Assembly: GCA_963716395.1 (NCBI GenBank) | Contig: OY970309.1 | Span: forward strand, 2,720,001 to 2,784,000 | DNA: 64,000 nt | Direction of reading: 5' to 3' | Source: an uncultured Fibrobacteria bacterium | Lineage (GTDB): Bacteria; Fibrobacterota; Fibrobacteria; UBA11236 | Shown: piece after piece, positions 35,500-39,994 of the stretch | Numbering within the stretch: the stretch's first letter is position 1 | How the letters are laid out: each line of letters opens with the position of its first letter | The notes under the pieces: model-generated | Seen by the model: only the letters and a program-made list of their open reading frames with translations | Database searches by the model: none | Told to the model about the DNA's origin: nothing | Position numbers and translations under genes: made by a program

Positions 35500-36297
35500 A
35501 TGCGTGTTACGATGGGAGCCTGGGGAACCTGGGTGGCCGTATTGGGGGTCGCGGCCTGTCACGTCGAACCACCCGTGGCCGCGTACCAACTGTCCCGCCC
35601 CGTGCGCGGCCGCTTGGCCATCGATTTCTCGGCCGCGCGCGCCGCAGGAGACAGCACCGCCTACCATGCGCGTACCGAAGCCTGGGTGCGACTCCGGCGC
35701 ATCGATACCGCCGGTCCGTTGGCGGTGGAGTTGGAGGTGGATTCCGCGACCTGCGTCAGCCCGGGACGCAGCCCGGCCGAGATCGCTTTTGTGCGCGCGG
35801 GCTTGGCCCATTATCACGCCACCTGGAGCATGGGTCGGCAAGGGCATGTGCTCGATTTGAGTGAAACGCCGGCCTTTCCGCCCGGCGAGTTTGGATTTCG
35901 CCTAGCGCCGCTGCTCACCGCGACCTTGCCGGTGTTTTTCCCGGCTTCCGCGCCGGATAGCGCGGCGATCGATTCGCAATCGCTGTTCGACCCGGCTTCA
36001 CAGCGCACTGCACGCGTACAAAGCGCGGCCGGGCCTGATCGCCGCATGCGTACCGGCGGCGTTGCGGGCGCCCGGCATGTGGTTCTGCGGTTGGCCGACA
36101 CCGGCAGCCAGGCCATCGAATTTACCGGCGACGAGCGCTTTCAATTCGACACCGCCGTGGGTTTCCCCACCCGGATGTCCTGCGATTTGAGTGGAACTTT
36201 GCCACCGGACTCGGCTTCGCACCTCGGATTGCGCATGGATTTGCAGATCGACTTTGAAGCGCTTGAGCCTGCCCCGTCTCGCGTCGAAGACCAATGA
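35500..36297 (+). CDS. Hypothetical lipoprotein
   Basis: Lipobox-like LGVAAC; starts 2 nt after the kinase stop. Confidence 0.65.
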   Translation: MRVTMGAWGTWVAVLGVAACHVEPPVAAYQLSRPVRGRLAIDFSAARAAGDSTAYHARTEAWVRLRRIDTAGPLAVELEVDSATCVSPGRSPAEIAFVRAGLAHYHATWSMGRQGHVLDLSETPAFPPGEFGFRLAPLLTATLPVFFPASAPDSAAIDSQSLFDPASQRTARVQSAAGPDRRMRTGGVAGARHVVLRLADTGSQAIEFTGDERFQFDTAVGFPTRMSCDLSGTLPPDSASHLGLRMDLQIDFEALEPAPSRVEDQ

Positions 36298-36388: not shown

Positions 36389-37222
36389 TTGCCGACTTGG
36401 GAAAAAAGCGCGCAGACCTTCGCGATGCGGGGCCCCCCTTCGCCTGCGCCGGCGGAAAATCTTTTGGAAACGTTGTCCGGCTGGATGGAACCGCGCCACA
36501 CCTTGCTGCTGCGCGCGCTGGCCGAGGGTATGACCCAGCCTCCGCGCTTGCCCGGCGATGCCGTGCTGCTCTTGCAGTCGGGCAGCCAGTTCGCCGCCCT
36601 GCGCCGAGAAGTCAGCCTGCGTTTCGCCGAGTTTCGCGGCAAATGGAGCCCGCGCCTCGAAACCGCCGCGTTGTTGCCGTTGCTTCAGCGTAATCAATGG
36701 ATCGTGGCGTATGCGCAAGGGGGCGTGATGCTGGCCGGCAAAGGCGGCCGCAAAGAGGCCAGACTGTTGTATCTGCAAACCCTGCACGACATGGTTTCGG
36801 ACTGCGCCCGGCAATGGAGCGGCCTGGCGGGGCGATTGCACGCCAGCCAAGAGGCGTTGGCGCGCGCCTGGCAAGCACGGACGGCGTCCGGCAACGAAAC
36901 GCGCATGTTACCGGCGTTGGAGGCGACCCTGCACCACGCCGAGTATGAAGCCTGGAAGTCGGTTCGCCTGTCTTTGGGCCACCTCGCCGAAACCGCCTTC
37001 GTGGACGCCGTCAGCCCCTGGGAAGGGCGTGCCTTTGCGCGCCCGGAAACCCTGGTGCGCGATTTGCCTGCGCCCTGGCGTCGTTTCGACGGCGCCGCGA
37101 ACGGATTCATGGGCTTCATGCGCGCCGTGTCGCAACTATCCGAGGCTTTCGTTTCCGCCCTGATCGATCATTACGACGGCAAATGGGAGCTTTACCTCCG
37201 CGGTTTCGCGGAATCCACTTGA
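36389..37222 (+). CDS. Hypothetical helical protein, DUF3348-like (Zorya III accessory-like)
   Basis: Size, position and helical pattern (…LHASQEALARA…LPALEATL…AF) resemble the recalled DUF3348 consensus; start uncertain. Confidence 0.5.
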   Translation: MPTWEKSAQTFAMRGPPSPAPAENLLETLSGWMEPRHTLLLRALAEGMTQPPRLPGDAVLLLQSGSQFAALRREVSLRFAEFRGKWSPRLETAALLPLLQRNQWIVAYAQGGVMLAGKGGRKEARLLYLQTLHDMVSDCARQWSGLAGRLHASQEALARAWQARTASGNETRMLPALEATLHHAEYEAWKSVRLSLGHLAETAFVDAVSPWEGRAFARPETLVRDLPAPWRRFDGAANGFMGFMRAVSQLSEAFVSALIDHYDGKWELYLRGFAEST

Positions 37223-37240
37223 ACCACTTTCGGGGAACGC

Positions 37241-38635
37241 ATGGAATCATCGACTTCGCACGCGCCGGAGCGCAACCCTTTCGGAATCGGCATGGCCGGG
37301 GGCCTGGTTTTCAGCCTGGCCTGCTTTATTCTGGCGGCGCTGCGCCGGCCGCCGGATCTCTATTTGTTTGGGGGCGGCGCCGGATTGGTGGCCGCCGCCG
37401 TGTTGTGGTCCTGGCGCGGGGCTTTGGCACAGTTCCGCCAGGGTTGGGAAGACATGCGCTCCACCTTGGCGCGCCTCGAAGCGCCGGCCGCGGCTCCGGT
37501 CGTGGAGGCAACGCCGTCCGAGAATGCTGACGCCGAACAGCGCCACCGCGAGGCCTTCGAAAGCCGAACCCGGCAGTTGCGGCGTGCCCTGGAAGAAGGC
37601 TTGCAGGCCGGATTCGCGGCCCTGACGCCCGGTTTGTCACAAGGTTTGGAAACCGCCACCGCGCGCCTGGACGACGGCTTGAGAACGGAGCGCGAAGATC
37701 GCGCCCGGGAGATGCGCGAACTGCAAACAACCCTTGCGCAAAGTCAGGAAGCCTGGGCGCACTTGCAAGCCGCGCAGCGCGAGGCGCATCAGCACCTGTC
37801 CGAAACCCTCCAGACGGCGCTGGCGGGTCTGCAAACTTCGCAACGCGAAGCCGCGCAGGCGGCGGTCCGCGCCTGGGAAGAGTGGCGCGCGCAGGCGGCG
37901 GCCATCGGTCAGCCGATGGCAGAGCACGCCGTGCAATGGCAAGCCGCCGCCGATCGGGTGGATGCCGCCGTGGCCGCCTTGCCCGCGGCCGTGGCCGAGT
38001 TGTCCCGGGCTTTCCGACGCGAAGCCGATGCCGAATGGAACGCCCAGTTGCGCGGATTGGCCGAAGCTTGGGACAAGATGCTGCAGGCGGCGGAGGCGCA
38101 AAGCGAACGCAGCGCCGCGTCTATGACGGTCAGGATGGAAGCGCTCGCGGCGCAAAGCGAAACCGCGCCGGCGGCGGCGGCCGAACACTTGCGGGCGGCG
38201 GCGGAGCAGGCCCAAGCCTGGCTGGGCAGCCTGCAAGCGGCCGGGCAAAAACTGGAAGGCGCCTTTGCCGGCGCGCAGCGCTTCGGCGAGGAGGCGGCCG
38301 CACATCAAGCCGACCTCAAGGCGGTGGTGGAAATGTTGGAGCGCGGCATGACCGGCGTACTCGATCGCCTGCAAGCCTTGGGCTCCCTGGGTGAAGGCCA
38401 TGCGGCGCTGCTGGAAAAAATGCACGCCTCGGTGCGCCGCTTCGAGGAACGGGCCGCGGAATTGCTCGAGGAAAATTCCTTGAAAGCCCAAGAGGCCCTG
38501 CTCGAGGTGTTGGAACGAACCGCTCCGGCCCCCGCCGAAGATGCGCCCAACGGCGATCCGGATCTCCTCGGCGCCGCCGAAGACGAGGCGCGAGCAGGCG
38601 AAGCGGTCAAAAAGGCCGAAGCGCGTGGAGACTGA
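37241..38635 (+). CDS. Membrane-anchored coiled-coil protein, ZorA/DUF802-like
   Basis: Two N-terminal TM helices and a ~400-aa Ala/Gln/Glu helical tail; C-terminus FEERAAELLEENSLKAQEALLEVL resembles recalled type III ZorA YVAQAREVIDLS..SQKQI.E.L. Confidence 0.6.
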   Translation: MESSTSHAPERNPFGIGMAGGLVFSLACFILAALRRPPDLYLFGGGAGLVAAAVLWSWRGALAQFRQGWEDMRSTLARLEAPAAAPVVEATPSENADAEQRHREAFESRTRQLRRALEEGLQAGFAALTPGLSQGLETATARLDDGLRTEREDRAREMRELQTTLAQSQEAWAHLQAAQREAHQHLSETLQTALAGLQTSQREAAQAAVRAWEEWRAQAAAIGQPMAEHAVQWQAAADRVDAAVAALPAAVAELSRAFRREADAEWNAQLRGLAEAWDKMLQAAEAQSERSAASMTVRMEALAAQSETAPAAAAEHLRAAAEQAQAWLGSLQAAGQKLEGAFAGAQRFGEEAAAHQADLKAVVEMLERGMTGVLDRLQALGSLGEGHAALLEKMHASVRRFEERAAELLEENSLKAQEALLEVLERTAPAPAEDAPNGDPDLLGAAEDEARAGEAVKKAEARGD

Positions 38636-39239
38636 TTGGACCGCGTTGCGCGCATGCGTGCAGGCCGCGCCGGCCGACCTGCATCGACGCGTTTTCTTCG
38701 ATGCCTTGCTCCGTCGCGGAGAAGCCGCCCAAGCCGCCCAGCCCGCCGTGGCCCGGCATTGCCGCGACCGGGTCGAAGCTTTTTTGCAGCATACGGCCGG
38801 AACCTCGACAGCCCCGGCGGTCGCGGAACCCGGGGTAACCTCGCCGCTCGAAGGGTTGAAAAGCCGTTGGGAAGAGGCGTCCCGCCGCCGGGCCGTCGCG
38901 TTGCTGGACCGCCTGGGTCGACATTTGACTCCGGCGGAGCGCGCCGCCTACACGACCAGGGTGGCCGAAGCCCCGGCCCCCGCGCTGGCGCCGCTGCGGC
39001 GTCATCTCCAGGATCGACTGCTGCGCATTCTGGCCCGCCGGCGCGCCGGAAACCGCGAAGTTACCGGGTCGGTCGAAATCGAAGCCGGGGCGGGCCCTTA
39101 CAATGCCCGGGCCACGCTGGCGGCGGTCTGGAACCGGGTAGTCGCCGCCGATGCGGAGTGGTTGCGCGAGTGGGTGGCGCTATATGCGCGCATGCAGAAA
39201 ACTCTGCGGACCTTCGGCGCTTTGCGGCCCGAAGGGTAG
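38625..39239 (+). CDS. DUF2894-like protein
   Basis: GTG start overlaps the previous stop; SPLEGL and AGPYN...WL..W...Y..M motifs resemble recalled DUF2894 AGPLNS...YL..F..Y..TL. Confidence 0.6.
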   Translation: METDWTALRACVQAAPADLHRRVFFDALLRRGEAAQAAQPAVARHCRDRVEAFLQHTAGTSTAPAVAEPGVTSPLEGLKSRWEEASRRRAVALLDRLGRHLTPAERAAYTTRVAEAPAPALAPLRRHLQDRLLRILARRRAGNREVTGSVEIEAGAGPYNARATLAAVWNRVVAADAEWLREWVALYARMQKTLRTFGALRPEG

Positions 39240-39244
39240 ACGAA

Positions 39245-39994
39245 TTATCGGCTTTTGGCGGTGGGGATTCCCGAGCCGAGAAAAATGCCCGCGATGCCCT
39301 GGAATTTGCCGCCGAGGGTGAGGCCGCCCGGTCCGATGGCGTATTCCACGATATCTTTGTCGTGATCGCTGCCGCGCATTTTCAGAATCATCAGGCAGCG
39401 TTTGATCTCGGATTCCATTTCCAGGTAGCGCAGCAGAAAATAAGCGTCGACGATAAAGGGAATTTTGTTGGCGGCGGAGTTCCATTTGCCCAGGATGTTG
39501 GCATTCTCCTTGAGCAGAAGGCAGGTGGCCTCTTCGCGTTTTAACCCGTTCACCACCTCGGTTTCGATGGAGCGCAAATCGCCGACGTCGCGCGCCAGGC
39601 TTTCGAAATGCGTGATGCTGTCGACCACCACCCGGCGCGTGTTGTGCTCGCGCAGCAGCGACGCGATTTTGCCGTCGGCGTCTTCCAGGTCTTCCACGAA
39701 GTTTTCCGGTGAGGTGAACACCACCAGCAGCTTGCCTTCTTTCTGCAGTTGGCGCAAATCCCAGCCCAATTCGGCGGCGCAGTCGTAATACTGTTCGGGA
39801 AATTGCTCGAAGGCGAAAAGCATACCATGCTCGCCTTCGGCCACGCCTTGCAGGATGAATTGCAGCGCCAAGGTGGTCTTGCCGGTGCCGGCCGCGCCTT
39901 CGACGAGCACCGCCGATCCCGGCAGCAGTCCGCCGCGCAGCATGGCATCGAGACCGGCGCATCCGGTTTTCACGCGTTTGGTTTTGGTTTCCAC
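39245..39994 (-). CDS. Single-domain KaiC-like RecA-superfamily ATPase (COG0467-like)
   Basis: TGCAGLDAMLRGGL, GAAGTGKT, VVVDSIT, ILKMRGS. Confidence 0.88.
   Translation of the reverse strand: METKTKRVKTGCAGLDAMLRGGLLPGSAVLVEGAAGTGKTTLALQFILQGVAEGEHGMLFAFEQFPEQYYDCAAELGWDLRQLQKEGKLLVVFTSPENFVEDLEDADGKIASLLREHNTRRVVVDSITHFESLARDVGDLRSIETEVVNGLKREEATCLLLKENANILGKWNSAANKIPFIVDAYFLLRYLEMESEIKRCLMILKMRGSDHDKDIVEYAIGPGGLTLGGKFQGIAGIFLGSGIPTAKSR

Follow-up and report, generated by a model that had tools for sequence, protein, structure and literature searches.

How much of a Zorya-like motor system can a lineage discard while the remaining genes stay under selection? This question is raised by three adjacent genes, here called A, B, and C, of an uncultured Fibrobacteria bacterium whose genome (3.75 Mb, 99% complete) is assembled as a single contig. 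The genes lie within the 64,000-nucleotide stretch that we analyzed, referred to as the window (C1:2720001-2784000), and positions in the feature lines are counted from its first letter. The first-pass annotation, made from the sequence alone, had read them as a Zorya type III-like operon without ZorB, with a ZorA-like protein whose membrane head looks reduced. Two reports define Zorya type III by a DUF3348 gene and a DUF2894 gene on either side of zorAB (PMC8565338; PMC11890865). Our analysis supports the central claim of the annotation through orthology with four-gene relatives. We consider it likely that the trio is a motor-less remnant of a class-wide Zorya III-like cluster, and that its remaining parts work as a membrane-tethered module without the motor. 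What is new is a type III-like form without ZorB and without the channel, the finding that this form arose repeatedly, and the status of the cluster as a core feature of the class.

36389 to 37222, plus strand: gene A, TTG start, 277 amino acids (open reading frame and translation)
37241 to 38635, plus strand: gene B, ATG start, 464 amino acids (open reading frame and translation)
38625 to 39239, plus strand: gene C, GTG start, 204 amino acids; a longer frame from the ATG at 38541 encodes 232 amino acids

The open reading frames are present with the tight linkage that had been described, i.e., an 18-nt spacing between A and B and an 11-nt overlap of the GTG start of C with the stop of B. A purine-rich stretch lies a few bases 5' of each of the three starts, and C homologues align N-terminally from the GTG start. 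Ratios of nonsynonymous to synonymous substitution rates (dN/dS), calculated from ZorB-less pairs with unsaturated dS (<1.1), were 0.02–0.13 for A, 0.07–0.25 for B, and 0.16–0.28 for C; the trio is under purifying selection. The genes are real, as their order is kept in 30 loci and dN/dS is far under 1.

In tblastn searches, relatives at the genus, family, and order level showed the trio in unchanged order and among the same housekeeping genes. Class-level relatives carry a fourth gene, X, which encodes 212–216 amino acids and sits between B and C. X of the loci L020, L021, and L025 matches the PADLOC model of ZorB3 (PDLC00651) over nearly its whole length with E values of 1e-41 to 1e-44, carries an OmpA domain (Pfam), and retains the invariant transmembrane Asp of MotB/ZorB; in an hhalign comparison with betaproteobacterial ZorB3, X scored E 7.5e-43. 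The B proteins beside X (547–597 amino acids) match ZorA3 models, with the best match in L021 (E 6e-15, residues 13–543), and the L025 protein also gives a weak Pfam MotA_ExbB match. All B proteins taken together aligned with DUF802 in hhalign at E 1.2e-8 and a probability of 95.6.

In locus L055, which belongs to the window's order but to another family, the cluster consists of A, B (622 amino acids), ZorB3, and C; the KaiC gene, holA, and greA come next on the opposite strand, just as they do in the window. L055 is the four-gene form at the window's locus; judging from matching coordinates, it appears identical to contig G026:C493. Every zorB-bearing locus reads A-B-X-C (16/16) and every zorB-less locus A-B-C (30/30). 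The four-gene cluster of Fibrobacter and related families is represented by L020, L021, L025, L055, and L083–L097. At the 25 ZorB-less loci that were measured, at most 31 nt separate the stop of B from the start of the longest C frame. Lineage profiles match the window's A, B, and C at E 4e-113, 8e-118, and 4e-61, with the window included in the training alignments, and the tail of the window's B protein is homologous to the ZorA3-type B tails of relatives (E 4.6e-12 to G035, and by alignment). As judged from these sequence comparisons, the trio is orthologous to the class core cluster A-ZorA3-ZorB3-C, whose closest known relative is Zorya type III.

In the Fibrobacter-type genomes, two tightly packed genes precede A (L020, 6306-7855, plus strand; L021, 11626-13283, minus strand; L025, 12518-14112, minus strand). 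Their products in L020 and L021 are a DUF6263 protein and a small NosD-like protein of beta-helix type; for L025, a match was obtained for the latter only. Two further loci, L032 and L036, come from bins labelled 'uncultured Bifidobacterium sp.'. The gene set on L032 is that of Fibrobacteria, and in the A tree this locus groups within Fibrobacteria; L036 contains a match to A at 51% identity. Both bins are probably mislabelled.

Gene B is where the three-gene and four-gene forms differ in architecture, and two of its parts are referred to throughout.

37286 to 37414, plus strand: membrane anchor of B, residues ~16–58 (Kyte-Doolittle scans)
38273 to 38545, plus strand: tail tip of B, residues 345–435, the best-conserved part of B across the class (alignments)

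Two transmembrane helices had been claimed for B. The Kyte-Doolittle scan shows a strong hydrophobic segment at ~16–34, which bears out the first, and only a weaker one at ~40–58 in place of the second. ZorB-less B proteins have two hydrophobic segments (26/31) or one (5/31), and the ZorB-linked proteins three or four. The anchor is followed by a tail of ~400 residues that is rich in Ala, Glu, Leu, Arg, and Gln (24.6% Ala) and is presumably helical and cytoplasmic. In the tip, K415 and E418 are invariant in 18 sequences, and Q356, F401, E411, E418, and L424 in 12. B is the fastest-evolving and most length-variable gene of the trio, ranging from 170 to 679 amino acids (longest open reading frame) in ZorB-less loci, and the tip is retained even in proteins shortened to 170–235 amino acids. 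The 170-residue B protein of the window's nearest named relative consists of one helix, a short coil, and the tip, and the B proteins of genus g24 have 225–235 residues. In one g24 protein of 225 amino acids (L100, 7783-8460, plus strand), a single membrane helix is followed by Pro/Lys-rich five-residue repeats instead of a coiled coil, and then by the tip.

B has matches in 32/41 related genomes, and the tail-tip profile (run with 'longer' lengths) collected 606 proteins; the named ones among the best 120 of these 606 are all Fibrobacter-type. A word-index homologue search returned one relative for B and, with the C profile, three proteins including the window's own.

In the alignment of B proteins, a hydrophobic hairpin at the N-terminus, a helical middle region that varies, and ~90 well conserved residues in the C-terminal part are common to every form. 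An extra 130–190 residues with a second hairpin of MotA/ExbB signature occur only in zorB-linked B. A profile of this channel hairpin matches all 16 full-length zorB-linked B proteins, by construction since they form its training set, and none of 28 ZorB-less B proteins (best E 0.2), nor any in five further ZorB-less loci. The profile also misses the window's B, in agreement with the reduced membrane head suspected for the ZorA-like protein. In the solved E. coli type I complex, EcZorAB, the helices of ZorB are lined by TM2 and TM3 of ZorA, which touch Asp26, an essential residue of ZorB (PMC11946911). Because these last two transmembrane helices of ZorA line ZorB, the segment lost from B would correspond to the ion path and the part that holds ZorB.

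To call full-length ZorB3 in 151 genomes of the class, we required E 7.6e-31 or better and a frame of 195–236 amino acids. No genome of the window's family (f1) has the gene (0/31), nor does any of families f2 (0/6) and f4 (0/12). It is present in 89/95 genomes of family f5, in every genus except g24, and in all genomes of f3 (1/1), f6 (2/2), f7 (1/1), and f8 (2/2). The f1 tallies, for ZorB3 and for A alike, include genome G067, which is unpublished; when it is left out, they become 0/30 and 29/30. Absence from the window is thus shared by its close relatives.

The reduced form is not confined to the window's surroundings. Family f4 (L098, L099) and genus g24 within f5 (L100, L101) also carry A-B-C without X. 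In a maximum likelihood tree of A, built on 46 rows that include only loci with a readable B-C junction, g24 falls inside a zorB-bearing clade and L055, which has zorB, among ZorB-less lineages. Well-supported branches of this tree force at least two changes, and the approximately unbiased (AU) test rejects a single ZorB-less clade with p 3.7e-5, for a gene tree with long branches and a group that was named after the tree had been seen. zorB has been lost independently at least twice.

A itself is present in one copy per genome in 149/151 class genomes (111/112 of those of high quality). In a sample of the phylum, it was found in 58/58 class members and in 0/63 genomes of other classes. This single-copy core pattern is unlike that of a patchy, strain-variable defence system; Zorya systems are differentially distributed among strains, according to the available text of PMC11890865.

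The sole trace of the cluster in G025, a genome of 1.6 Mb and 32% GC in family f2, is a 419-residue protein (L102, 6608-7867, minus strand). Its first 285 residues correspond to A (hhalign E 4e-13). The final 135 residues match the C profile with a domain i-Evalue of 0.0013, and the alignment takes in the motif described below; one in 2000 shuffles scored as high, and hhalign gave P 0.0037 as against 0.27–0.54 for controls. No B gene was found next to it. These alignments are suggestive of an A-C fusion, which, if real, would argue that A and C act together.

In the window's lineage, zorB, with its peptidoglycan-binding part and proton-accepting Asp, and the hairpin segment of ZorA were removed together. 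EcZorAB is a ZorA5B2 complex, i.e., a 5:2 proton motor anchored to peptidoglycan (PMC11946911); the remnant cannot be an ion-driven rotary motor. We propose that B is instead a membrane-anchored helical tether, probably oligomeric like ZorA, and that its tip keeps A and/or C at the membrane's cytoplasmic face. The module formed by A, the tip, and C would then deliver the output of the system without ion flow or peptidoglycan sensing. The oligomeric state, the topology, the docking of A and C on the tip, and the cellular role in this scheme are what we infer. A complex prediction of A, C, and B residues 335–440, run without controls, gave scores of 0.30, 0.37, and 0.18 against a mark of 0.32 and is evidence neither way.

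As to the cellular role, a resident envelope- or membrane-linked function is in our view more likely than phage defence, because the cluster is vertically inherited and near-universal in the class. A bolder extension, which we regard as somewhat doubtful, is that A, the tail tip, and C are the working core with a resident, non-defence function at the membrane. On this view, the ZorAB motor would regulate or localise the core and be dispensable; it was discarded at least twice, and one reduced genome appears to be down to an A-C fusion without any membrane subunit.

Among the alternatives to a resident tethered module, the one that survives best holds that the trio is a motor-independent anti-phage Zorya derivative, in which the anchored tail senses infection by some other means and A and C, once activated by it, are the effectors. 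Protection of E. coli from phage is on record for canonical Zorya III: the closest characterized relative, the type III system of Stenotrophomonas nitritireducens, cuts plaquing in this host in the available account (PMC8565338), and this speaks for a defence role and against a resident one. Moreover, in types I and II it is the tail and the partner proteins, which the trio has kept, that communicate with effectors: the effector is recruited by ZorAB (PMC11890865), and defence is abolished when the ZorA tail is truncated (PMC11946911). Purifying selection on all three genes would also be expected of such a derivative. However, the same papers report that peptidoglycan binding by ZorB, ion flow, and the motor are all needed for defence in types I and II (PMC11946911, PMC11890865), and all of these are impossible here. 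The cluster is near-universal, single-copy, syntenic, and vertically inherited across the class, whereas Zorya elsewhere differs among strains, and family and fold searches with A and C revealed no domain of a nuclease or another effector. We therefore consider an anti-phage derivative possible but unlikely.

The link to Zorya type III itself has to be weighed for each of the three proteins. A is a soluble helical protein in the position of the DUF3348 gene, and C an all-helical protein in the position of the DUF2894 gene. The AlphaFold model of A (pLDDT 90.3, pTM 0.84) shows helices packed antiparallel into a long bundle, plus a small hairpin. It has no Foldseek match among solved structures at E <=0.001 (best E 0.15). 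Its best VIA rows are the stalks of dynamin-family proteins (Drp1, dynamin, MxB, LeoA; Z 8.2–10.1, rmsd 4.1–6.2, 168–192 residues), which may serve as a lead only since these Z scores are within the chance range for helical bundles. A search of 1.84 billion representative proteins with the A profile found 69. The model of C (pLDDT 85.8, pTM 0.51) consists of two three-helix bundles followed by helices that flank its motif; it too has no Foldseek match among solved structures at E <=0.001 (best E 1.4), and its VIA rows are generic three-helix bundles (Z <=8.4) that leave the motif region uncovered. ESM Atlas look-ups with A and C gave no usable match, and searches of PDB sequences with the A profile, the C profile, and full-length B gave chance-level rows only.

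39093 to 39104, plus strand: GPYN motif of C, residues 157–160, in the same register as GPLN of DUF2894

The AGPYN motif noticed earlier in the third protein is indeed a conserved feature, with G157, Y159, and N160 of the GPYN part invariant in 40 homologues. In hhalign, C aligned with DUF2894 over 75 columns at P 5e-4, compared with 0.12–0.91 for six mismatched control pairs. The alignment is centred on GPYN/GPLN, and later Pro, aromatic, and Phe-Leu positions are in register. This weak yet specific similarity suggests that C is probably a diverged DUF2894 protein. For A, which was compared with DUF3348 against six mismatched controls (0.12–0.91), P was 0.059, and homology was not shown. Position and size fit a positional counterpart of the DUF3348 gene. 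Of the proposed correspondence with genes 1, 2, and 4 of Zorya type III, that of B is borne out by way of its orthologues; C is weakly similar, and A fits in position and size.

The sequence comparisons also yielded points that weigh against reading the trio as a Zorya III-like remnant. The direct profile similarity that had been expected was not found: neither A nor C has a family match in Pfam, NCBIfam, or PADLOC, and no window protein matches a Zorya model above noise. The PADLOC models work on their intended targets, as canonical DUF3348 (E 1.6e-90) and DUF2894 (E 4.1e-77) proteins show, and the same models match 0/9 Fibrobacteria A and C proteins. DUF3348 is likewise absent from all 32 full-length representatives of the A family that were scanned. 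Pfam detects neither DUF802 nor MotA_ExbB in the window's B. Direct scans with this protein gave a weak ZorA3 match (E ~0.004) alongside JetC, BrxC, and SpiroCoCo, all of which we rejected as coiled-coil or compositional noise. A profile of 31 ZorB-less B proteins scored P 1.4e-4 with DUF802 and P 2.3e-4 with reversed DUF802. Because the reversed family scores about equally, we take the ZorA3 matches of B to be compositional, and the DUF802 likeness of the ZorB-less tail is, at the level of these profiles, indistinguishable from composition. The N-terminal hairpin of the ZorB-less proteins shows no significant similarity to either hairpin of the zorB-linked proteins (best E 0.039, with the first hairpin), so that the identity of the lost helices follows from alignment position. 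The loop between the two helices of B is positively charged in the alignment of genus relatives, which bears on the proposed topology. Finally, even the four-gene ancestor would be merely Zorya III-like, the likeness residing in the motor pair, gene order, and gene sizes.

These points lend some weight to a second alternative, in which the Fibrobacteria cluster, with or without zorB, would in function be no relative of Zorya but a separate envelope machine that has only the MotAB-type stator in common with Zorya III, and A and C would be unrelated to DUF3348 and DUF2894. Besides the failure of the Zorya III models on A and C and the P of 0.059 for A with DUF3348, the core-gene distribution is compatible with such a machine, and DUF802 occurs in none of the best 120 of the 606 tail-tip matches. 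Yet X and B match ZorB3 and ZorA3 of type III best among all PADLOC and Pfam models. Gene order, sizes, and short overlaps mirror those of five canonical loci on betaproteobacterial replicons (Variovorax, Aquabacterium, Azoarcus, Ralstonia, and Caballeronia). There, DUF3348 (~250 amino acids), DUF802 (720–885), OmpA (212–224), and DUF2894 (196–236) genes follow in this order with short overlaps. C also shares GP[YL]N with DUF2894 in register, at a P value well apart from the controls. We judge an independent machine to be rather improbable.

A third alternative is that B still acts like a stator, paired with a protein of the MotB, ExbD, or TolR type whose gene lies elsewhere in the genome. The window had been noted to lack an OmpA domain, and the genome's nine OmpA matches do all lie outside C1:2720001-2784000; these and seven MotA_ExbB genes are potential sources of such a partner. 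In addition, MotB-like paralogues that cover most of the ZorB3 model (E ~1e-17) occur in several class genomes. A genome-wide check for an orphan zorB, which the first-pass annotation had suggested, revealed no cognate gene in this one-contig genome: full-length ZorB3 is missing, and X and the ZorB3 model match only OmpA domains (at best, model positions 75–202). The best genomic match to X and ZorB3 is a 292-residue MotB that adjoins its own 270-residue MotA. The weaker MotB-like matches are found in class genomes with and without a cognate zorB and are for this reason regarded as paralogues. As the channel hairpin, by which the partner helix is contacted, is missing from B as well, a distant partner is very improbable. 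The genome contains, besides the MotA/MotB pair, two adjacent long MotA_ExbB frames of 506 and 426 amino acids; these genes (C1:1560606-1561858 and C1:786754-787712) are unlinked to the trio.

That the trio is a decaying, functionless remnant of a broken Zorya-like operon might be argued from the loss of two parts needed by solved Zorya systems, from the rapid evolution and variable length of B in ZorB-less loci, and from a foreign gene between A and B in one lineage, but with all three frames open in 30 loci of four taxonomic groups, dN/dS of 0.02–0.28, a B tip, A, and C that are conserved across the class, and a reduced form that arose at least twice, this explanation is largely refuted already and has next to no chance of being right.

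The surroundings of the trio were described as housekeeping genes, and this was confirmed. Upstream, on the plus strand, lie genes for a FAD-dependent protein, a pseudouridine synthase, a 912-residue TPR Ser/Thr kinase, and a protein of 265 amino acids. Downstream, on the minus strand, a single-domain KaiC-like ATPase gene, holA, and greA are followed by argJ and glyA. Third-position GC is 0.76–0.77 in the trio and 0.72–0.77 in the neighbours, so that the composition is host-like, as had been stated. The two genes that directly flank the trio are the following.

35500 to 36297, plus strand: gene for a 265-residue protein of no known family, between the TPR Ser/Thr kinase gene and gene A
39245 to 39994, minus strand: KaiC-like ATPase gene, 249 amino acids, convergent to gene C

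The N-terminus of the 265-residue protein resembles a lipoprotein signal, with a hydrophobic stretch that ends in Cys, and weak homologues are encoded at the same place in several family-level relatives. We rejected the upstream kinase and the 265-residue protein as fixed members of the system, as genus relatives carry an SPFH/NfeD pair there. The KaiC-like ATPase gene is retained beside the cluster in family and order relatives and is missing at the genus-level loci L017, L018, and L019. In one genus-level relative, a gene for an AMP-binding enzyme of 730 amino acids (L033, 8903-11095, minus strand) is inserted between A and B; because it separates them, A and B need not be co-transcribed.

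We know of no role that has been assigned to the two accessory proteins of Zorya III. The cluster described here amounts to a repeated natural deletion, in which the anchor subunit and the ion channel are gone and the tip and both accessory proteins have been selected over the long term. This repeated loss under selection argues that the accessory module can act without rotation. It also makes one ask whether defence is the primary role of type III-like systems at all. A natural series for dissecting the role of each part is available in the forms with four genes, with three genes, with a short tether, and possibly with a fusion. Since the PADLOC models of the Zorya III accessory proteins miss the nine A and C proteins, automatic annotation will probably leave such loci without a label. 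Naming needs some care as well: PADLOC-DB entries PDLC00652-00658 call DUF3348 'ZorG3' and DUF2894 'ZorF3', the reverse of the usage in the available text of Payne et al. (2021; PMC8565338). A full-text literature search, which did not extend to supplementary distribution tables, yielded no substantive account of Zorya in Fibrobacter, and it returned no account of a ZorB-less ZorA, its sole match being an in-vitro expression study.

Three known systems can be set beside the trio. E. coli type I Zorya resembles it in having a membrane protein with a long helical cytoplasmic tail, the integrity of which is needed for communication with the partners in type I, according to the available reports. 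In that system, the partners are a DNA-binding protein and a nuclease, whereas the trio has neither a motor nor a recognizable nuclease. Zorya type III is closer. It shares with the trio a helical protein, a long-tailed membrane protein, and a GP[YL]N helical protein in the same order, with similar gene sizes and overlaps of a few bases between neighbours. It differs in that the trio lacks zorB and, in the ZorA-like protein, the MotA/ExbB channel hairpin; in that the window's B has 464 residues compared with 720–885 in DUF802 proteins; in that A and C are missed by the DUF3348 and DUF2894 models; and in that the Fibrobacteria cluster is a class-wide, single-copy, syntenic core locus rather than a patchy one. 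The closest likeness is with the Fibrobacter-type four-gene cluster. Its A and C genes and, within B, the tail with its tip are orthologues of those in the window, and in one relative of the same order the cluster occupies the same chromosomal context. The four-gene cluster has kept zorB, including the transmembrane Asp, and its B protein has the channel hairpin; the form found in the window has lost both.

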